Assembly: GCA_021299385.1 (NCBI GenBank)
Contig: JAJTGZ010000006.1
Span: 9,926-73,925 of the forward strand
Length of the DNA: 64,000 nucleotides
Direction: 5' to 3'
DNA from: Phycisphaeraceae bacterium
GTDB taxonomy: Bacteria; Planctomycetota; Phycisphaerae; Phycisphaerales; UBA1924
Shown: positions 17,596 through 62,497 of the stretch, piece by piece
How the letters are laid out: every line of letters starts with the position of its first letter
Numbering within the stretch: the stretch's first letter is position 1
Program-made: the position numbers and the translations under genes
The notes under the pieces: model-generated
What the model was told of the DNA's origin: nothing
The model's database searches: none
Seen by the model: the letters and a program-made list of their open reading frames with translations, nothing else

Positions 17596-20500
17596 ATGAG
17601 CCAGACGCCTGATCAACCTGTTGCGGGTACGTTGCCGAGTGATGGGCCTGAGCACAGGTATACGGCTGTGCTTGCCGAGCGGATCGAGGGGCGTTGGCAG
17701 CGGTGGTGGGCCGAGCGGGGGACGTTTGTGCAGCCGAACCCGGGTGAGGTGGGGTTTGACGCCTCGCGCCCGAAGTTTTATTGCCTGGACATGTTCCCGT
17801 ACCCGAGCGGTGCGGGGCTGCACGTTGGGCACCCCGAGGGGTACACGGCGACGGACATTTTGTGCCGGTATAAGCGGGCCAAGGGGTTCAACGTGCTGCA
17901 CCCGATGGGGTGGGACGCGTTTGGGTTGCCGGCGGAGCAATACGCGATCCAGACGGGCGTGCACCCGGCGGTGACGACGAAGGGGGCGATCGAGAACTTT
18001 CGTAGGCAGTTGCAGCGGTTTGGGTTCTGCTATGACTGGAGCCGGGAGGTCGGGACGATTGATCCGGGGTATTACAAGTGGACGCAGTGGGTGTTTATCC
18101 AGTTGTACGAGGCGTGGTTCGACCACGAGCAGCAGAGGGCGCGGCCGATTGCGGAGTTGGTCGAGGAGTTTGCCAGCGGGAAGAGGGAGGTGGAATACAA
18201 CCCGAGGGGGGAGGGGGGGGAGAGTGGTGCCGGGCTGGGGGAGTGGGCGGGTTTGGACAAGCCAACGCAGAGGAAGGTGCTGGCGAGTTATCGCTTGGCG
18301 TACCAGAGCACGACGACGGTGAACTGGTGCCCGAAGCTCGGCACGGTGCTGGCCAACGACGAGGTGATCGACGGCCGGAGCGAGCGCGGCGGGCACCCGG
18401 TGCTGCGCAAGCCGATGCGGCAGTGGATGCTGCGGATTACGGATTACGCAGACCGGTTGCTGGGGCAGTTGGACTCGCTGGCGTGGCCGGAGAGTACGAA
18501 GACGATGCAGCGGGAGTGGATCGGGCGGAGTGAGGGTGCGGAGATTGAGTTTGGGTTGGGTGGGGACGGGGTTTTGGATTTGGGTACCCCCACGCTCCGC
18601 GTGGGGACTCCCGACCCCACGCGGAGCGTGGGGGTACCCGGCCCCACACGGAGTGTGGGGGTACCCATACACGAGGAGGCAGCCGAGGGCCGGGTGGGGA
18701 GACATCCAACGCTGTCAGGATCAGAGATTGACGGGATCGCGGCGCGGCCGGATGAGGCTTCGCACCCGACGGGGTTTGTGGCCTGCGACCCCTACCCGCC
18801 CGGCGGGGTGGGGTTGTCGGGTGATGCGGCGAGGTCGGAGCGGAACTTGCCGCATATTACGATGCCGGGCGCGACGTACTTTGTGTCGTGGCGGTGCCAG
18901 GATGGGTTGGTGCTCAGCGAGCGCGAGAGGGGGGTGGTGCTCGACTCGCTTGTGCACTTTGACGGCGAGCGTGGGAGGGTCTTCGCGGCGGTGGTGATGC
19001 CGGACCATGTGCACTGGATAGTCAGGCCCGGCGAGGGGTTTGAGCTGGGCAAGTTGGTCGAGAGCGTCAAGCACTTTGCCGCCCAGGAGATCAACAAGAT
19101 GCGCGGGAGCAAGGGGCGGCTGTGGGAGCCGGAGGCCCTTGACCACATCGTGCGTGATGAGAACTCGTTTGGGAAGTATGTTGCGTATGTGGTGAGGAAC
19201 CCGGTTGAGGGTGGGTTGGTTGATCGTGCGAGTGATTATGGTGCGCTGTTTGTGCATGCGGATGTGCGCAGCCGGGTGCCCCACGCGGAGCGTGGGGGTA
19301 CCCAAAGGCAGGGTGCCCAAAGGCAGGGTACCCGAAGGTGGGGTACCCAAGGCAGGGGGTTGACTGTTTTTACTACGCGGCCGGATACGTTGTTTGGGGC
19401 GACGTACATGGTTGTGGCCCCCGAGCATGAGCTGGTTGGGCGGGTGTTGGCCGCGCCTGGGCCGAGGACCGATGTCGGCAAGGTCTCGGCGTATGTCCAG
19501 GCCGCTCGGCACAAGAGCGATGTTGATCGGCAGGAGGCCAAGACCAAGACGGGGGTTGATCTGGGTATCGATGCGGTCAACCCGGCGACGGGGGGGGCGA
19601 TACCGGTGTGGGTGGCCGATTATGTGCTGATGGGGTATGGGACGGGGGCGATCATGGCCGTGCCTGGGCATGATGAGCGGGACAATGAGTTTGCGGCGGC
19701 GATGGGGTTGCCGGTGGTGGAGGTTGTGCGGCCACCTGCGGAGTTCAAGGGCAAGCCGGGGGTGTGCTTTAGCGGCTCGGGCACGGCGATCAACTCTTCG
19801 GGGCCTGAGGTCTCGATCGACGGGCTGCCGACGGCCGAGGCGAAGGGGAAGATCATCGCGTGGCTGGAGGGGAGCGGGCGTGGGGTGCGGAAGGTGAACT
19901 ATCGGCTGCGCGACTGGACCTTCAGCCGGCAGCGGTATTGGGGTGAGCCGATCCCGATTGTGTTTGATGAGCACGGGGACCACTACCCGGTGAGCGCATC
20001 GCACTTGCCGGTGGTACTGCCGGAGTTGGAGGATTATGCCCCGGCTGAGAGCGACGATGCGCAGCCGCTGCTCGCTAAGGCGAAGGCGTGGATGAATACA
20101 ACCGCAGGCGCAGCGGGGATTGAAGGGGTTGACCCCGCGCTGGACCACCCCAGCTCGCCGGTTACGCGCGAGGCCAACACCATGCCCGGCAGCGCAGGCT
20201 CGTCTTGGTATTTTCTGCGGTACTGCGACCCGAAGAACACCTCGGCGTTCATCGATCCGAAGATCGATGCGTATTGGATGGGCAATGGTGTTGACTTCTA
20301 CATCGGCGGCAGCGAGCACACGGTGGGGCACCTGCTCTATGCGCGGTTCTGGCAGAATGCGCTGTGCGACCTGGGGCACGTTACGTGCCGGGAGCCGTTT
20401 CGGAGGCTGTTCCATCAGGGGATGATCACGAGCTTTGCGTATCAGCGCGGCGACAAGAGCCTGGTGCCCGTTGATGAGGTGGACGAGGGGCCCGAGGGTG

Positions 20501-21246
20501 TCTTTGTTGAGCGTGCCACGGGCAAGGTGGTCGAGCAGATCGTTGCCAAGATGAGCAAGAGCCTCAAGAACGTCATCAACCCTGATGAGATCATCGCCGG
20601 GTATGGGGCGGACACGTTCCGGCTTTATGAGATGTACATGGGGCCGCTGGAGGCGAGCAAGCCTTGGAACACCAAGGACATCATCGGGCCGTTTCGGTTC
20701 TTGCAGCGGCTGTGGCGGAACGTGATCGATGAGCAGAGCGGGGCGGTGGTGCTGGCAGGCGAGGGGGCGCCGGCAGAGTTGACGCGGCTGGTGCACCGGA
20801 CGATCGCGGGTGTTACGCAGGACATCGAGAATATCTCGCTGCACACGGCGATTGCCAAACTGATCGAGCTGAACAACGCGGTCACCAAGGCCGCCGCGGC
20901 GGGGCCGGTGCCCAAGAGCATCATCGAGCCGATGCTGGTCTTGCTTGCGCCCTTTTGCCCGCACATCTGCGAGGAACTTTGGTCGCGCCTCGGGCACGAG
21001 AAGACCATCGCCGACGCGCCGTGGCCGACGCACGACCCGGCGATGCTGGTGGATGAGACGGTGGAGATTCCGGTGCAGGTGCAGGGGAAACTGCGTGGGA
21101 AGGTGCTGGTGCCGGCGGGGTCGGACGCCAAGACGATCGAGCAGATCGCACTTGCAGACGCCAAGGTGCAAGGGGCGCTAGAGGGCAAGCCGATCAAGCG
21201 GGTGATCGTGGTGCCGGGCAAGCTGGTGAATATTGTTACGGGGTGA
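17596..21246 (+). CDS. leuS: leucyl-tRNA synthetase carrying an in-frame insertion of about 269 aa (RAYT-like domain) before the CP1 editing domain
   Basis: 'PYPSGAGLHVGHPEGY' (HIGH motif), 'VNWCP', 'TTRPDTLFGATYMVVAPEH', 'VNYRLRDWTFSRQRYWGEPIP' and 'KMSKSLKN' are present. It is one uninterrupted ORF of 1216 codons. Confidence 0.9.
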   Translation: MSQTPDQPVAGTLPSDGPEHRYTAVLAERIEGRWQRWWAERGTFVQPNPGEVGFDASRPKFYCLDMFPYPSGAGLHVGHPEGYTATDILCRYKRAKGFNVLHPMGWDAFGLPAEQYAIQTGVHPAVTTKGAIENFRRQLQRFGFCYDWSREVGTIDPGYYKWTQWVFIQLYEAWFDHEQQRARPIAELVEEFASGKREVEYNPRGEGGESGAGLGEWAGLDKPTQRKVLASYRLAYQSTTTVNWCPKLGTVLANDEVIDGRSERGGHPVLRKPMRQWMLRITDYADRLLGQLDSLAWPESTKTMQREWIGRSEGAEIEFGLGGDGVLDLGTPTLRVGTPDPTRSVGVPGPTRSVGVPIHEEAAEGRVGRHPTLSGSEIDGIAARPDEASHPTGFVACDPYPPGGVGLSGDAARSERNLPHITMPGATYFVSWRCQDGLVLSERERGVVLDSLVHFDGERGRVFAAVVMPDHVHWIVRPGEGFELGKLVESVKHFAAQEINKMRGSKGRLWEPEALDHIVRDENSFGKYVAYVVRNPVEGGLVDRASDYGALFVHADVRSRVPHAERGGTQRQGAQRQGTRRWGTQGRGLTVFTTRPDTLFGATYMVVAPEHELVGRVLAAPGPRTDVGKVSAYVQAARHKSDVDRQEAKTKTGVDLGIDAVNPATGGAIPVWVADYVLMGYGTGAIMAVPGHDERDNEFAAAMGLPVVEVVRPPAEFKGKPGVCFSGSGTAINSSGPEVSIDGLPTAEAKGKIIAWLEGSGRGVRKVNYRLRDWTFSRQRYWGEPIPIVFDEHGDHYPVSASHLPVVLPELEDYAPAESDDAQPLLAKAKAWMNTTAGAAGIEGVDPALDHPSSPVTREANTMPGSAGSSWYFLRYCDPKNTSAFIDPKIDAYWMGNGVDFYIGGSEHTVGHLLYARFWQNALCDLGHVTCREPFRRLFHQGMITSFAYQRGDKSLVPVDEVDEGPEGVFVERATGKVVEQIVAKMSKSLKNVINPDEIIAGYGADTFRLYEMYMGPLEASKPWNTKDIIGPFRFLQRLWRNVIDEQSGAVVLAGEGAPAELTRLVHRTIAGVTQDIENISLHTAIAKLIELNNAVTKAAAAGPVPKSIIEPMLVLLAPFCPHICEELWSRLGHEKTIADAPWPTHDPAMLVDETVEIPVQVQGKLRGKVLVPAGSDAKTIEQIALADAKVQGALEGKPIKRVIVVPGKLVNIVTG
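18583..18665. repeat. Three 24-nt REP units (GGTACCCCCACGCTCCGCGTGGGG): forward 18583-18606, reverse 18615-18638, reverse variant 18642-18665
   Basis: Units 1 and 2 are perfect reverse complements. Unit 3 differs at two positions that are compensatory within the hairpin stem (CACGC/GCGTG changed to CACAC/GTGTG). Confidence 0.9.
19279..19302 (-). repeat. 24-nt REP unit (CCCCACGCGGAGCGTGGGGGTACC) at the right flank of the RAYT-like domain
   Basis: Exact reverse complement of the unit at 18583-18606. Confidence 0.9.
19296..19354 (+). repeat. About four tandem 15-nt units GGGTRCCCRAAGGYR
   Basis: GGGTACCCAAAGGCA / GGGTGCCCAAAGGCA / GGGTACCCGAAGGTG / GGGTACCCAAGGCA. Within LeuS this is translated as 'GTQRQGAQRQGTRRWGTQG'. 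Confidence 0.8.
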
Positions 21247-56550: not shown

Positions 56551-57519
56551 ATGGACCTTGCGGGCAAGAAGATCGTCGTAACCGGTGGTGCCGGGTTTTT
56601 GGGCAGGTCGGTGCTCGGCGCGCTGCGGGCGCGTGGCGTGCAGGAACGCGACCTCTTTGTCCCCAGACGCAGAGACTTTGACCTCACGAGCGAGGTTGGT
56701 GTAGCCCGGCTGTACGCACAGGCCTTTGCAGGGGCGAAGGTTGATGTCGTCATCCACCTGGCCGCGGAGGTTGGGGGGATCGGGGCGAACCTGCTCAACC
56801 CGGGGCGGTACTTCTTTGCCAACATGGCCATGGCGTTGCACCTCATCGAGCAGGCGCGTGCCGACGGCTTGGTCGAGCGTGGGGGGAAGTTTGTGCAGGT
56901 TGGGACGATCTGTGCGTACCCCAAGTTCACGCCGGTGCCGTTTGTTGAAGATGATCTTTGGAACGGGTACCCCGAGGAGACCAACGCGCCCTACGGCGTT
57001 GCGAAGAAGGCCGCGTGGCAGATGCTCGATGCGTACAAACTGCAGTATCAGATGCGCAGCGCCTATCTGCTGCCGGTGAACCTGTATGGCCCGCACGACA
57101 ACTTTGACCTGGGCAGTTCGCACGTCATCCCCGCGTTGATCCGCAAGTGCGTCGAGGCGCAGCAGCGTGGTGATAAGGAGATCGTCTGCTGGGGAACGGG
57201 CAGTGCGTCGCGCGAGTTTTTGTTCTCCGACGACGCCGCGGAGGGGATCGTGCGTGCGGCTGAGGTGATGGACGACCCGACGCCGATCAACCTGGGGGCG
57301 AGCTTCGAGATCAAGATCAAGGACCTCGTCGAGCTCATCGTCAAACTGACGGGGTTCAAGGGGGCGGTGGTGTGGGACGCGAGCAAGCCCGACGGGCAGC
57401 CGAGGCGGTGCCTGAGCACAGAGAAGGCCCAGAAACTGCTTGGCTGGAAGGCGCAGGTGGGGTTTGAGGATGGGCTGAAGAGGACGATCGAGTGGTATCG
57501 GGCGAACTGCAAAGGCTGA
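56551..57519 (+). CDS. fcl: GDP-L-fucose synthase (SDR epimerase/reductase)
   Basis: '[12 protein letters not shown]', '[14 protein letters not shown]', 'PYGVAKKA' and '[12 protein letters not shown]' are present. Confidence 0.8.
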
Positions 57520-57588: not shown

Positions 57589-60500
57589 TCAATCACTCCC
57601 CGCCGCGACGCGTTTGCGTTCCCACGGCTTGGGTTCGCGTTTGACCATCTCGGGCTTCTTGGCCTCAAACTCCACGGCACCTGGGCCAAGCTCCCTGCCC
57701 GCCCAGGCCAAAAACTCGGCCGTCGGGGTGATGCGCGTGCGGGGCAGGTCCAGCGTGATCTCCGCACCGGCCGTGCGCACGAGCAGCTCGGCGGGCTTTG
57801 GCTCGCCGCCCGGGCGGGCCTGGGCGAGGTGGGCGACAAGGCCGTCGAGCTTTGCCTGCGCGCTGCCGTTGTGCCGGCGCTCGTCGATGACCACACGCAC
57901 GCGAGCGGCCAATAGCTCTGCCGCGGCCTCGATCGGGACGATCTGCTCGGCGATCAGCTGCGACTCACCCCGGCTCATGTCCACCTTGCCGACGATGAAG
58001 ACGATTTTGTCCACCCGTGCCGTCTCGGAATACTTGGCAAAGCAGTCGCTGAAGCAGACGCACTCGACGGTGCCATCTTTGTCCTCGATCGTCAGCACGC
58101 CCATCTTCTGGCCCGCGCTCTTGCCACTCTTGACCACCAGCACACGCACGCCCGCGATGAGCGCGCCGATGGCCACACGCTGGTCCTGCGGGTGCATCTT
58201 CTCGCGCAGCCGGCGTGAGGTGGTGTTGCCCAGGCCCTGCACCAGCGTGGCGTGCTCGTCGAGGGGGTGGCTGCTGACATAAAAGCCCAGCGTCTCCTTC
58301 TCGTGCTGGAGTGTCTCGGTCTCCGTCCACGGCGTGGCACGCGCCAGGGGCGTGCTGGCGGCCTTGACGGCGGGCGCCTGGACCGGGCCGCCGCCCATGC
58401 CACCGCCCATCTCACCGCCCATGCCAAAGAGCCCACCCTGGCCCGACGCGCGGTCGCGTGCGGCACTCAGGCCCGAGGCGACAGCACCCTCGACGGTGGC
58501 GAGCATCGCCGAGCGTGCGGCACGCCCGTGCAGGCAGTCAAACGACCCGCTCTTGATGAGCGCCTCGATGGTCGCCTTGTTGACGTTCCCCGCCGCGCTG
58601 CCGCCGCCGCCACCGACGGGGACGCGCTCGCAAAAGTCGTGCAGAGAGGTGAAGGGCCGAGGGGTGAGGGCCGAGGGGTGAGGGGATGCACCGCCGGTGC
58701 GTTCGCGCAGGATGCTCTCGATCGCCTTGTCCCCGACGCCCTTGATCGCGCCGAGGCCAAAGCGGATGTGCCCGTTGCCGGCCTTGCGCGCCTCACCGTC
58801 GGCAAAGACAACCGCAAAGTCCGCCTGAGACAAGTTGATATCCGGCGGCTTGACCTCGACGCCCACCTTGAGCGTCTTGCCCGTCGCCGGGTCGATCACA
58901 CGCGTGTTCTTGCAGTCTTCAAGGTACGGCACCCAGTCGCTCACCTGGCTTGCTGCGCTCTCAAAGGTCAGGAACGCGGCCATGTACTGCTGCGGAAAGT
59001 AGGTCTTCAAGTACGCCGTCTGATACGCGACGATCGCATACCCCGTGCTGTGGCTCTTGTTAAAGCCATACCCCGCAAACTTGAGGATGAGTTCGAACAG
59101 ATCCTCGGCCCCCTGCTTGCTCAGGCCCTGCGACTGCGCCCCGGCAACAAACTTGGGGCGTTCCTTCTCGATCTTGTCATGCTTTTTCTTGCTGATGTTT
59201 TTGATGAGCGTGTAGGCGTCGCGGAGTTTGATCCCGCCCAGGCCGTGCACGATCTGCATGACCTGCTCTTGGTAGACCATGACGCCGTAGGTCTCGCTGG
59301 TGTACTGATCGACAACGGCGTGCACGTGCGGGACCTCGACCTCGCCGTGCTTGCGTTTGTTGTAATCGGGGATCAGGTCCATCGGCCCTGGGCGGAAGAG
59401 GGCGTTGGCGGCGATGAGGTCTTCGAGGCGGTCGGGCTTCATCTCGACGAGCAGTCGGCGCATGCCGGGGGACTCAAACTGGAAGACGCCGGTGGTGTCG
59501 CCGCGGCGGAAGATTTCGAGCACGGCCTGATCGGTCGGCTCCAGGCGGTCCAGGTCCAGCGGGTGCGGGCCACCATCGCCTTGCGTGCGCCCTACGGCCT
59601 CCCAAACCTGCTCCTCAGCAAGACCCTCATTGATCAATTTCTTGCAGCGTTCCACAACGCTCAGCGTGCGCAGGCCTAAAAAATCCATCTTCAGCAGACC
59701 CATCTGCTCGCACGTCGGGCCGTCCCACTGCGTAACCGTTTCCTGGGTCCCGCTGGGGCGGTAGAGGGGGACTATCTCATCGAGCGGTCGCGTGGCGACG
59801 ATGACGCCCGCGGCGTGCACGCTCGCGTGCCGGGCTTGGCCCTCGATGGCCCGCGCATTGTCGATGATCCTCTGGACCATCGGGTCGCGGTCGTAGATCG
59901 CACGCAAATCCGGCTCCTGCTCCAGGGCCTTGTCCAGCGTGATGCCAACCTGCTCGGGCACAAGCTTGGCGATCTTGTCAACCTCCGCCAGCGGCATCTC
60001 CATCACGCGCCCAACGTCGCGGATCGCCGCCTTGGCCTTGAGCGTCCCGAAGGTGATGATCTGTGCAACGTGCCCGTACTTGTCGGCAACATACTTGATG
60101 ACCTCCGCACGCCCGTTCTGGCACAGGTCGATATCGATATCGGGAAACTCCGATCGGTCGGGGTCGGTGAAGCGTTCAAACAGCAGCCCGTACTGCACCG
60201 GGCAGGCGTTGGAGAGGCCGAGCACATAGCCGACCATCGTGCCCACGCCCGAGCCACGGGCGTTGGCCGGGATGCCACGCGTGCGACCCCAGTTGACGAA
60301 GTCCCAGACGATGAGGAAGTACGCGGCGATCCCCTTGTCGCAGAGGATTTTCAGTTCGCGCTCCAGGCGTGCGCGTTGGGTACCACCACGCTCCGCGTGG
60401 TGGCTCTCCTGCTCCCCCACGCGGAGCGTGGGGGTACCCGTCGTACCCGAACCCGACGGCCCATACCGCCACACATACCCACCCTCGGCCAGCAATCGCA

Positions 60501-61650
60501 GCGCGTCGTCGCACTCGCTCTTGGCCTGGGCCAGCAGTGTTTGTTTTTCCTGCTCACTGGCGCCATCGGGCAGCACGAACGGCACAACCTCGATCCCCTG
60601 GCAGTACGCCGAGTACCACCTGCTCAGGTCGCCGCCGAACGCGGGGTCGTCGTGGCGCGGCAGTTCACCCTTGCTACGCCTGATCCGCACCATCGGCGCG
60701 TTGTTGGCCCCGATGGGCAGCACCACGTTGCACCGCTCGGCGATCTTCTGCGTGTTCGCCAAGGCCTCCGCGCCCGGTTTGCCATAGGGCTTGAAGATCG
60801 CCGACATCTCTGCCGGGGACTTGACGTAGAGGTTGCCGTCGTACCGCATCCGGTCGGGGTCGTTCTTCGCCTTCCCCGTCGAGATGCAGATCAATGTGTC
60901 GTGCGCGTCGTGGTCCTGGGCGCGCAAGAAATGGCTGTCGTTGTCGCAGACCACCGGCAGCCCGAGCTCATCGGCCAGCGCGATCAGGTGTTTGTTGATG
61001 CTTATCTGCTCGCGCACATGGTGCTGCAGCTCAATGAACATCCTTGGCCCGGTCCCCACGTCGGCAAAGACGCCCGCGTGCCACGTTGCGCTCTCGACGG
61101 CCCGGTCCCAATACGTCTTGTCCCCCGTCCGCTCAAACTCGAGCAGGTGTTCGCCGATCTCGCTGCCCAGGTGCCCGTTGATGGCGATCAACCCGCTGCT
61201 GTGCTGGGCCAAGAGTTTGCGGTCGATGCGGGGCTTGAAGTAGAAGCCTGTCAAGTAGGCCTGCGTGCACAGCTTGAGCAGGTTCTGCCAGCCGGTGTTG
61301 TTCTCGGCCAGCAGCACCAGGTGGTACCCGCCGTCGCCCACGCCGGTGTAGGTCCTGTCTGTGCGGTCGCCCGGCGCGACGTATGCCTCGACGCCAAGGA
61401 TCGGCTTGATCCCGCGCTCCTTGGCGGCCAGATAAAACGCCACCGCGCCGAACATGTTCCCGTGGTCGGTGCACGCCACGGCCCGCATCCCCAACTCGGC
61501 GACGCGGTCCATCAGTTTGTCGATCCGGTTGCCGCCGTCGAGGAGGGAATACTCCGTGTGCAGGTGCAGGTGCGTGAACGCACCGGCCGCGGGGTCGGTA
61601 TTTGAGGCCGAGGGAGACTTCGGGGTCGGGATAGGTTCTTGTGCAGACAT
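57589..61650 (-). CDS. dnaE: DNA polymerase III alpha subunit
   Basis: PHP 'FTHLHLHTEYSLLDG', 'GIAAYFLIVWDFVNW', 'HAAGVIV' and 'FNKSHSTGYA' are present. Start is ATG 61650. It contains a 60-nt REP doublet in frame. Confidence 0.9.
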   Translation of the reverse strand: MSAQEPIPTPKSPSASNTDPAAGAFTHLHLHTEYSLLDGGNRIDKLMDRVAELGMRAVACTDHGNMFGAVAFYLAAKERGIKPILGVEAYVAPGDRTDRTYTGVGDGGYHLVLLAENNTGWQNLLKLCTQAYLTGFYFKPRIDRKLLAQHSSGLIAINGHLGSEIGEHLLEFERTGDKTYWDRAVESATWHAGVFADVGTGPRMFIELQHHVREQISINKHLIALADELGLPVVCDNDSHFLRAQDHDAHDTLICISTGKAKNDPDRMRYDGNLYVKSPAEMSAIFKPYGKPGAEALANTQKIAERCNVVLPIGANNAPMVRIRRSKGELPRHDDPAFGGDLSRWYSAYCQGIEVVPFVLPDGASEQEKQTLLAQAKSECDDALRLLAEGGYVWRYGPSGSGTTGTPTLRVGEQESHHAERGGTQRARLERELKILCDKGIAAYFLIVWDFVNWGRTRGIPANARGSGVGTMVGYVLGLSNACPVQYGLLFERFTDPDRSEFPDIDIDLCQNGRAEVIKYVADKYGHVAQIITFGTLKAKAAIRDVGRVMEMPLAEVDKIAKLVPEQVGITLDKALEQEPDLRAIYDRDPMVQRIIDNARAIEGQARHASVHAAGVIVATRPLDEIVPLYRPSGTQETVTQWDGPTCEQMGLLKMDFLGLRTLSVVERCKKLINEGLAEEQVWEAVGRTQGDGGPHPLDLDRLEPTDQAVLEIFRRGDTTGVFQFESPGMRRLLVEMKPDRLEDLIAANALFRPGPMDLIPDYNKRKHGEVEVPHVHAVVDQYTSETYGVMVYQEQVMQIVHGLGGIKLRDAYTLIKNISKKKHDKIEKERPKFVAGAQSQGLSKQGAEDLFELILKFAGYGFNKSHSTGYAIVAYQTAYLKTYFPQQYMAAFLTFESAASQVSDWVPYLEDCKNTRVIDPATGKTLKVGVEVKPPDINLSQADFAVVFADGEARKAGNGHIRFGLGAIKGVGDKAIESILRERTGGASPHPSALTPRPFTSLHDFCERVPVGGGGGSAAGNVNKATIEALIKSGSFDCLHGRAARSAMLATVEGAVASGLSAARDRASGQGGLFGMGGEMGGGMGGGPVQAPAVKAASTPLARATPWTETETLQHEKETLGFYVSSHPLDEHATLVQGLGNTTSRRLREKMHPQDQRVAIGALIAGVRVLVVKSGKSAGQKMGVLTIEDKDGTVECVCFSDCFAKYSETARVDKIVFIVGKVDMSRGESQLIAEQIVPIEAAAELLAARVRVVIDERRHNGSAQAKLDGLVAHLAQARPGGEPKPAELLVRTAGAEITLDLPRTRITPTAEFLAWAGRELGPGAVEFEAKKPEMVKREPKPWERKRVAAGSD
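60379..60438. repeat. Inverted doublet (REPIN-like) of the 24-nt REP unit inside the dnaE coding sequence
   Basis: GGTACCACCACGCTCCGCGTGGTG (60379-60402), a 12-nt spacer, then CCCCACGCGGAGCGTGGGGGTACC (60415-60438). The total is 60 nt, or 20 codons, translated 'GTPTLRVGEQESHHAERGGT'. Confidence 0.85.
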
Positions 61651-61780
61651 AGAGCGACTCCGGCAAGCAACTGAGGCCACAATCGTACCGACCCCTTCTG
61701 GCCCGAGATCGGCGAGCACGGCACGCTGTCTACTGTTGTCAGTCGTCGTGAGTTCCCGCCCGCGCGGGCATCGGCAAGGG

Positions 61781-62497
61781 ATGTATGCAGACATGGCAAA
61801 GCGCGTGCAAGGACGAGTCCAGGCCAACAGCCACACACACCCCGTCGGCACGCCCAAAAAAATCGTCGTCGGCATCTCCGGCGCGTCAGGCGCTCAGTAC
61901 GCCACGCGCGTTATCGAAGAACTCCTCAAACGCGGGCACCATGTCCATCTGGTCGTAACCGAATACGGCCGGCAACTCCTGCACGACGAACTCGGCATCA
62001 CCAAACTCACCCTCGACCAACTCGTGCCGAGCCTCGCCAGCCAAGCCAAGCAGATCGAGAATATCCGCCTCTATGTCCACCCGCACAAAGACGTCGGCGC
62101 GGTGATCGCCAGCGGGTCGTTTTTGCACGACGGGATGGTCGTCGTCCCCTGCTCGAGCACCGCGCTGGGCTATATCGCCACCGGCTCGGGGAGCAACCTC
62201 CTCGGCCGCGCCGCGATGGTTACGCTCAAAGAACGCCGACGCCTCATCCTCGTCCACCGCGAAAGCCCGCTGAGCCTCATCGACATCAAAAACATGGAGC
62301 AGGTAACACTGGCCGGGGGGATCATCGCCCCGGCCAACCCGGGGTTCTACTTGCTGCCCAAGTCCATCGACGAGGTCATCGACTTCACCGTCGGCAAAGT
62401 TCTGGACCTGCTTGAGATCGAGCACGACCTCAAAACGCGCTGGGCCAGCCGGCGAAGTGAGATCCGCCGGGGGAGGGCGGGGAGTAGCGACGAGTGA
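61781..62497 (+). CDS. ubiX: flavin prenyltransferase UbiX family
   Basis: 'KIVVGISGASGAQYA', 'MVVVPCSSTALGYIATG' and 'ILVHRESPLSLIDIKNM' are present. The start is ATG 61781 or 61793. Confidence 0.85.
   Translation: MYADMAKRVQGRVQANSHTHPVGTPKKIVVGISGASGAQYATRVIEELLKRGHHVHLVVTEYGRQLLHDELGITKLTLDQLVPSLASQAKQIENIRLYVHPHKDVGAVIASGSFLHDGMVVVPCSSTALGYIATGSGSNLLGRAAMVTLKERRRLILVHRESPLSLIDIKNMEQVTLAGGIIAPANPGFYLLPKSIDEVIDFTVGKVLDLLEIEHDLKTRWASRRSEIRRGRAGSSDE

Follow-up and report, generated by a model that had tools for sequence, protein, structure and literature searches.

Here, we analyse a stretch of 64,000 nucleotides (hereafter, the window) from the metagenome-assembled genome (MAG) of a Phycisphaeraceae bacterium (GCA_021299385.1, contig JAJTGZ010000006.1, positions 9,926 to 73,925) and show that dnaE, the gene of the replicative DNA polymerase III (Pol III) alpha subunit, carries an in-frame inverted doublet of a repetitive extragenic palindromic (REP) sequence. 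Such a doublet, folding into one long hairpin, is known as a REPIN, and we consider it probable that the copy in dnaE was mobilised by a REP-associated tyrosine transposase (RAYT) and has since been tolerated as an in-frame insertion. Judged by comparison with its orthologues, the doublet appears to be a recent insertion, because neither a 96%-identical sister dnaE nor any of 80 metagenomic orthologues contains it. The transposase is itself embedded in a gene of the window, leuS, together with four further REP copies.

The two units lie heads-out on either side of a short spacer (Table 1), with the coordinates and sequences that an earlier note on this DNA had given, 12 nt apart. A search of the window allowing up to 3 mismatches to the 24-mer recovered six copies, four in leuS and two in dnaE, against none in the 100 dinucleotide shuffles that served as control; a shorter core pattern run on the window returned no further genuine REP copies. 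The second dnaE unit is an exact match to the family consensus, GGTACCCCCACGCTCCGCGTGGGG, and the first bears the allele A:T at stem positions 7/23. As the same note had proposed, this pair of changes (CCCC>CACC and GGGG>GGTG) is compensatory and leaves the stem intact, each unit forming a perfect 9-bp hairpin on its own. The pair is not a local mutation, as this allele is the second commonest in the family (16/161 units). Taken together, the arms of the doublet reach 26 nt with 92% complementarity in repeat finding (find_repeats), and the folding calculation that had been suggested for the doublet gave z-scores of about -7 for DNA and mRNA strand alike: the 79-nt doublet region folds at -32.6 kcal/mol as DNA (z = -7.1 vs shuffles) and at -56.5 kcal/mol as the mRNA strand (z = -6.8 vs shuffles). 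An Rfam scan of the doublet identified no family, the sole match being a miRNA-like chance hairpin (20 bits vs a gathering score of 90).

The host gene encodes the replicative polymerase. The minus-strand open reading frame (ORF) at 57589-61875 has the complete Pol III alpha domain order in Pfam (PHP, DNA_pol3_alpha, finger, HHH_6 and OB), and the protein scored 1107.7 bits with the replicative equivalog NF004226 of NCBIfam (cutoff 1002) and 467 bits with the model of the error-prone DnaE2, under its cutoff of 939. We noticed that the longest ORF begins at 61875 and so extends the deposited reading frame, which starts at 61650, by 75 codons at its 5' end (61651-61875); the protein collection contains the shorter form only. 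The REP-encoded residues are 405-424 of MCE2924205.1, or 480-499 of the longest ORF, and the minus-strand translation across the doublet reads ...WRYGPSGSGTT-GTPTLRVGEQESHHAERGGT-QRARLERELKILCDKGIAAYFLIVWDF. Its REP-encoded peptide, GTPTLRVG-EQES-HHAERGGT, ends 17 residues ahead of the conserved block GIAAYFLIVWDF. By sequence alignment, the doublet falls in the unaligned stretch between residues 290 (just past the PHP end) and 389 (palm helix) of Thermus Pol III alpha. In an AlphaFold model of DnaE residues 95-760, built with 60 homologues (mean predicted local distance difference test score, pLDDT, 91.2; predicted template modelling score, pTM, 0.89), the only internal stretch with pLDDT <50 comprises residues 382-401; this segment has a long helix on either side and overlaps with the REP peptide, residues 386-405. 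The 20 REP residues are thus predicted to form a floppy, disordered loop. These results bear out the suggestion that the 20 codons were added in a variable linker ahead of the conserved block, as linker length varies between 30 and 57 aa among the 80 relatives and the insertion coincides with the only internal stretch modelled with low confidence. Elsewhere in the protein, a Gly/Met-rich low-complexity stretch lies between the HHH and OB domains (GGLFGMGGEMGGGMGGGP), along with other length differences from orthologues; these are unrelated to the REP.

To place the doublet among orthologues, we used a first set of database DnaE homologues consisting of proteins <770 aa, from which the window's own cluster was absent; the latter was found by exact look-up. 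The aligned best database homologues usually show the pattern WRYG-xDGITDEI-RARLEREL, with about 8 residues between WRYG and RARLEREL, and it is the segment from WRYG to ISA that spans 30 to 57 aa in the 80 metagenomic DnaE relatives. None of these 80 contains the dnaE REP, the best match having 8-13 mismatches of 24. Within the cluster at ≥90% identity, the doublet is present in 7 full-length alleles (the window included) and absent in 3, which read WRYGPLGPGNQGGAIQSDPRRARLEREL instead. An R>G change (GTPTLGVG), located where loop and stem of the first REP unit meet, occurs in one of the 7 full-length doublet alleles and is recorded for P0238 and P0244 (≥90% identical to the window). The REP-encoded peptide of DnaE is therefore not strictly conserved in natural alleles.

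The most informative comparison is with a sister genome represented by an ENA scaffold of 154,854 nt (L180), whose dnaE is 96.2% nucleotide-identical to that of the window and has no doublet. The doublet is hence polymorphic (present/absent) between ~96% identical genomes, the direction of change being inferred. At the site itself, ACG + 60 nt + CAA in the window correspond to 27 bases of unrelated sequence in the sister, so that the window allele is longer by a net 36 nt. Consequently, the earlier description of an in-frame insertion of exactly 60 nt applies to the doublet, which spans exactly 60 nt in frame, and not to the event as compared with the sister allele, which nets 36 nt and is not clean. 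The alignment of orthologues that had been called for does identify the 20 residues as an insertion, since the orthologues, the 80 relatives and the sister allele all lack them. On its right side, the empty allele (…SDPRRARL) is similar to the nearest outgroup L100 (…TDRRARL), and this likeness weakly suggests that the window state is derived rather than ancestral.

The same linker has received palindromic doublets more than once. In L099, the closest DnaE match (P0001), a decayed doublet of the window family occupies the same linker in the same frame (GGCACCGCCACGCTCCGCGTGGCG, 18 nt, CCCCACGCGGAGCGCGGGGGCGCC). In L115, 86% identical to L099, a palindromic doublet with another stem (CGGCTC-TCC-GAGCCG) lies in the same dnaE linker at about 1560-1630 (fold z = -4.5); this stem class, with a GGGTACC or GTAG head, also occurs elsewhere (L069, 4425-4450; L002, 4135-4160). 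No doublet was found in the dnaE linker of L122, 88% identical to L099, nor in those of L100 and L134, the nearest relatives of the window. As doublets are present in L099, L115 and the window and absent from L122, L100 and L134, the dnaE linker is a permissive site that has been used repeatedly. One ancient insertion common to the window and L099 was ruled out with a tree of the flanking DnaE columns, in which the two fall in separate clades with REP-less lineages between them. The doublet also sits at different offsets after WRYG (7 residues in the window, 3 in L099). Given the tree, the offsets and the ~96% identical sister without a doublet, we read the two doublets as parallel events.

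To characterise the REP family, we carried out a pattern search with one genome per species, seeded on near-consensus units. Among the matches listed there are at least 98 stretches in 26 MAGs, all of them assigned to Phycisphaerales, Phycisphaeraceae or Planctomycetota. Unit statistics were based on 161 units with up to 4 mismatches, under a pattern that allowed broken stem combinations. The consensus over these units is (Y)GGGTACC-CCCACGC-TCC-GCGTGGG-G, i.e., a GGGTACC head followed by a 9-bp stem; the head is GTAC and not the canonical GTAG, and head position 0 is G in 158/161 units. Stem variation consists almost only of Watson-Crick swaps (pair 7/23: C:G 124, A:T 19, G:C 12; pair 12/18: G:C 128, A:T 18, T:A 12; pair 10/20: A:T 152, T:A 5), broken combinations being nearly absent. 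On direct reading, the REP unit has no stop codon in any of the six frames. Heads-out doublets, that of dnaE among them, pair two different stem alleles in 17 of 24 cases, and their spacers range from 8 to 85 nt with sequences unrelated between doublets. With its head and palindrome, dispersed copies, inverted pairs, compensatory stem variation and a cognate RAYT flanked by REPs of the family, this is a genuine REP/REPIN family; an extragenic location, a usual hallmark, is lacking in the dnaE copy. We also noticed that the head motif GGGTACCC stands unoccupied at 56965-56972, within the GDP-L-fucose synthase gene. The other 7 copies of this 8-mer in the window all lie in REPs or in the leuS tandem array, compared with 0.8 expected by chance.

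The transposase cognate to this family lies within leuS, the leucyl-tRNA synthetase (LeuRS) gene (Table 1), where the extra segment sits between RSEGAEIEF and LTVFTTRPDT, at the start of the CP1 editing domain. The segment aligns to the E. coli TnpA-REP (PDB 4ER8) with E = 3e-6 across the HUH and tyrosine motifs. With NCBIfam NF047646 it scored 82 bits when the insert was scanned alone (cutoff 80) and 78.5 when the whole LeuRS was scanned, and with Pfam Y1_Tnp 22.6 bits, just under the cutoff of 23. On these sequence matches, the leuS insert is identified as the RAYT cognate to the REP family of dnaE. Its flanking unit at 18642-18665 carries the compensatory allele ACAC/GTGT. The earlier statement that all window copies sit inside two essential genes is correct as a count (4 in leuS, 2 in dnaE), except that the leuS copies are not independent, as they flank the RAYT. 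The tandem array at the 3' junction varies in copy number among alleles ≥90% identical; the LeuRS alleles P0143 and P0148 (≥90% identical) are 9 aa shorter at this array, and the empty site has ~1 copy.

Table 1 Features of the window discussed in the text, with positions counted from its first nucleotide.
Feature	Coordinates	Strand	Details
dnaE, replicative Pol III alpha	57589..61650	-	1353 aa, MCE2924205.1 ('MAG: Phycisphaeraceae bacterium'), exact sequence match
REP unit 1 of dnaE	60379..60402	+ (head-first)	GGTACCACCACGCTCCGCGTGGTG; GGTACC-ACCACGC-TCC-GCGTGGT-G; minus-strand mRNA reading HHAERGGT
Spacer between dnaE units	60403..60414		12 nt, GCTCTCCTGCTC; minus-strand reading EQES
REP unit 2 of dnaE	60415..60438	- (head-first)	CCCCACGCGGAGCGTGGGGGTACC; mRNA reading GTPTLRVG
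leuS	17596..21246	+	single uninterrupted ORF, 1216 aa, one protein MCE2924172.1; contains the RAYT insertion
REP-RAYT-REP insertion	18590..19348	+	759 nt, in-frame; GGGTACCC at both ends; blastn vs L181 and empty site
RAYT catalytic core	18853..19239	+	HUH MPDHVHW, tyrosine motif YVVRNPVEGG; LeuRS residues 420-548
Three REP units 5' of RAYT	18583-18606, 18615-18638, 18642-18665		readings GTPTLRVG, PTRSVGVP, PTRSVGVP
REP unit 3' of RAYT	19279..19302		reading PHAERGGT
Tandem array, 3' junction of leuS insertion	19296..19360	+	four imperfect ~15-nt copies, GGTACCC-AAAGGCAG; readings GTQRQ/GAQRQ/GTRRW/GTQGR

The sister genome is empty at leuS as well. Its leuS (L181/L182, about 95% identical) encodes 939 aa without a RAYT, and the empty site reads GGATTT-GGGTACCC-GAGGCAAAGGC-TTGAC, in a region where the 20 kb around leuS are 94-96% identical between window and sister. 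No REP-like sequence was detected in the 42 kb of sister DNA compared. The window thus has both the dnaE doublet and the leuS RAYT, and the sister has neither. A RAYT embedded in frame in LeuRS also occurs in L096 and L072, whose LeuRS parts are 64% and 57% identical to the window's and whose RAYT parts are 53% and 45% identical, respectively, and leuS of L042 has an empty site. The RAYT homologues that the protein database contains stand alone, with lengths of 149-212 aa, and the window RAYT is unlike such genes of about 150-210 aa. In leuS of CAZTQN01 (L051, 2440-2463), which has no RAYT, a single in-frame REP lies at another site, just before VDLYIGGSEH (SPTRSVGVP). In the literature open to our search, no paper connecting a RAYT with LeuRS was found. 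A large survey of Y1 transposases took 'unexpectedly long proteins' for products of fusion or misannotation and left them out (PMC6006769), and this may be why the arrangement has gone unnoticed.

We then asked how often the family resides within genes. A codon log-likelihood trained on the window genes gave the best frame for the 300 nt to the left and to the right of each of 117 clusters, which were sorted accordingly; the 110 not at a locus edge, from 26 Phycisphaerales genomes, were classifiable. The classifier is crude and misses in-frame copies with low-complexity or foreign flanks, examples being the flanks of the RAYT in leuS and the second valyl-tRNA synthetase (ValRS) doublet in L001. 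Strictly in-frame clusters, with both flanks coding in the same frame and the ORF open through the repeat, accounted for 26 of the 110 (at least 24%). A further 19 had the same best frame on both sides with one flank only scoring as coding, the leuS copies and the second ValRS doublet among them; 17 lay between opposite-strand genes, 41 were non-coding or coding on one side, and 7 showed a frame change or stop. The family is thus not overwhelmingly intergenic; the earlier note had named an overwhelmingly intergenic family as counting against its reading. In-frame placement was found for 11 of 21 heads-out doublets vs 15 of 76 singles. The in-frame share was high in DASZWV01, JAUXUZ01, JAIEOW01 and the window, and low in CAZTQN01 and JBDZUZ01, although the per-genome table wrongly pooled the window with JAIEOW01; in several genomes most detected copies are in frame.

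Aminoacyl-tRNA synthetases are frequent among the host genes. A Pfam match was obtained for 18 of the 20 host ORFs tested, usually with the domain match spanning the repeat, and the hosts include class I tRNA synthetases (ValRS-type twice, CysRS and GlnRS/GluRS-type) as well as SucC, SucD, CarA, Sua5, ribonucleotide reductase, carboxyltransferase, PrpD, aminotransferase and Eco57I-type methylases. Alignment or inspection by eye added LeuRS in L051 and a second CysRS in L071, and inspection by eye KdpC in L086. Synthetases make up ~6 of 24 independent events (binomial p about 1e-6, assuming that they occupy ~1.5% of coding length). Two genes have received two separate in-frame REP insertions each, namely an Eco57I-type methylase in L036 (1398-1466 and 1863-1931) and a ValRS-type gene in L001 (1426-1449 and 2818-2874). 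A third filled/empty pair was sought for ValRS, the methylase and KdpC of JAIEOW01, and none was obtained.

Reading-frame use within these genes is strongly biased. Among units in in-frame clusters, the head is read as GGT-ACC in 30 (giving GTPTLRVG or PHAERGGT), GTA-CC in 6 and TAC-C in 2, with no case of the two tryptophan-encoding frames (chi-square p = 1e-8 by unit, 3e-7 by cluster). The availability of GGTAC in coding sequence was ruled out as the cause of this bias, because native GGTAC in the coding sequence of the window is mostly xGG-TAC (phases 4/3/23; 23/30), the reverse of REP use. The bias would instead reflect a filter on the encoded peptide or its codon content. As for the target, the empty sites of leuS (GGGTACCC|GAGGC) and dnaE (GGGTAACC AAGGC) match at 16/21 positions, a comparison of two sites only (leuS TTGGATTTGGGTACCCGAGGC, dnaE TTGGGTCCGGGTAACCAAGGC). 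Both have a head-like GGGTAMCC motif, although at dnaE the junction lies a few bases away and comes with the 27-nt difference. From these two sites, the likeness may reflect a head-like target motif. The earlier note had left the choice between selection for tolerated in-frame insertions and a targeting preference; our results favour a selection filter on reading frame, and for targeting there is only the two-site hint.

Considering these observations together, we propose that the doublet, a REPIN, would be a non-autonomous passenger of the HUH/Y1 RAYT encoded 40 kb away in leuS, and that the RAYT would have moved its units via single-stranded hairpin DNA, as in IS200/IS605 relatives. It would have entered dnaE recently, in the linker, disordered and of variable length, that joins the PHP domain to the palm helix preceding GIAAYFLIVWDF, where a loop rich in Gly/Thr/Pro/Arg/Glu would be tolerated by the polymerase; it would persist because the frame is kept, none of the six frames has a stop and the loop is tolerated. 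Several points weigh against this account. That the RAYT moved the dnaE REPIN is something we infer from the sequences. What separates the filled from the empty allele of dnaE is a replacement (+63/-27 nt) rather than a clean insertion, and gain versus loss at this site would be decided by the outgroup comparison above, a weak argument. Since their spacers are unrelated in sequence, the doublets of the family cannot simply have been copied from a single master REPIN and may have been assembled from individual units. The census covered the window's own MAG by its 64 kb only (6 units). Finally, neutrality for DnaE is assumed, and an mRNA hairpin of -56 kcal/mol could have effects.

Such effects are the core of one competing account, in which the host has co-opted the doublet, the mRNA hairpin tuning dnaE translation, co-translational folding or decay, or the loop serving the polymerase. 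A very stable hairpin, palindromic doublets in the same linker of two other lineages (L099 and L115) and strongly non-random frame use would agree with a function. However, the ~96% identical sister and the nearest outgroups do without the doublet, disorder is predicted for the loop, about 20 enzymes unrelated to DnaE contain the same peptides, and one natural allele carries the R>G change in the REP loop, so that we consider co-option improbable. About equally unlikely is an origin without transposition, whether a REP copy elsewhere in the genome served as donor in recombination or gene conversion, or hairpin-primed or slipped synthesis took place where a GGGTAC-like motif already existed. 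Such an origin could explain why GGGTAACC stands at the homologous left junction of the empty dnaE and GGGTACCC at the empty leuS site, why the dnaE event is a replacement, why all doublet spacers differ and why alleles vary in the number of 15-nt tandem copies at the leuS junction. It fits poorly with two dnaE units that are exact family alleles with heads and stems intact, with the dispersal of the family over many unrelated genes and intergenic sites, and with doublet presence going together with RAYT presence in the filled/empty genome pair. We give very little credence to an assembly or binning artefact: in a MAG such as this one, REPs might lead to repeat-induced chimeras during assembly, but the dnaE ORF is uninterrupted with DnaE domains in order on both sides, and the doublet junctions are identical in the 7 full-length protein records, which come from NCBI, ENA and JGI assemblies. 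We therefore retain a RAYT-mobilised and tolerated REPIN as the probable explanation.

In-frame palindromes of this kind have precedents. Rickettsia palindromic elements (RPEs) are palindromic sequences that lie in frame in many housekeeping genes without destroying them, typically in surface loops; RPE-1 is about 100-150 bp long and AT-rich, and we know of no transposase associated with it. The likeness to the window family is one of behaviour only (in-frame and tolerated), and we set the two side by side by description, not by sequence. Closer are the GTAG/CGTC-tagged REPs within genes, many of them for replication or repair, that Di Nocera, De Gregorio and Rocco described in 2013 (BMC Genomics 14:522; PMC3733652). 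According to that paper, over half of the intragenic REPs are dimers or groups encoding 20-30 aa, their hosts include DnaE2, DnaE of Rickettsia conorii, repair genes and tRNA synthetases, and the top intragenic count belongs to Opitutus terrae, like the window host a member of the Planctomycetes-Verrucomicrobia-Chlamydiae (PVC) superphylum. Published intragenic dimers of this sort are overlooked by the premise of the earlier note that REPs are by definition usually extragenic. Single REPs and dimers in frame in known genes are what the two sets share. In contrast, the window family has the head GTAC (GGGTACC) instead of GTAG and is hosted by Phycisphaerales, of which the searched passages of PMC3733652 make no mention (no 'mikurensis'). 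Filled/empty alleles, the reading-frame bias and a RAYT that is itself intragenic are added here. Because in-frame REP dimers (2013) and RPEs precede it, the dnaE doublet belongs to an already known phenomenon, extended to a new lineage and to a family whose head is GTAC. Of the two elements, it is the RAYT inside leuS that brings more novelty.

Classical REPINs of Pseudomonas and Enterobacteria are extragenic, with the RAYT as a stand-alone single-copy gene (Bertels and Rainey 2011, PMC3116915). The window system resembles them in its inverted REPs, short spacer, long hairpin, HUH/Y1 transposase flanked by the same REPs and stem-preserving variation, and differs in that its dnaE copy is coding, its RAYT is internal to LeuRS and most doublets combine mixed stem alleles with unrelated spacers. 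Members of IS200/IS605 (IS608, ISDra2) recognise hairpin ends and insert beside a short specific motif without target duplication (PMC6006769 and general knowledge); the likeness to these lies in the transposase fold and motifs, whereas the window system has no autonomous insertion sequence (IS) structure.

To our knowledge, RAYT-driven REPIN transposition has not yet been shown directly. Here, filled/empty pairs at ~95-96% identity for both the REPIN (dnaE) and the RAYT (leuS) make target choice by the RAYT, as well as its cut and join points, directly testable. The frame bias and the excess of synthetase hosts illustrate how selection may filter mobile DNA within proteins and how proteins may gain surface loops, and a transposase translated as part of LeuRS raises the question of how such an enzyme is expressed and controlled. 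It is possible, if rather doubtful, that in these bacteria a REPIN-RAYT system resides largely within coding sequence, with the active RAYT made only as a LeuRS domain (in at least three distantly related Phycisphaerales genomes, with a clean empty site in the sister), and with REPINs inserted at GGGTACC-like motifs and kept mostly in one frame in synthetases and other housekeeping enzymes. If this is true, the host could hardly rid itself of a transposase and passengers that are built into its essential genes.

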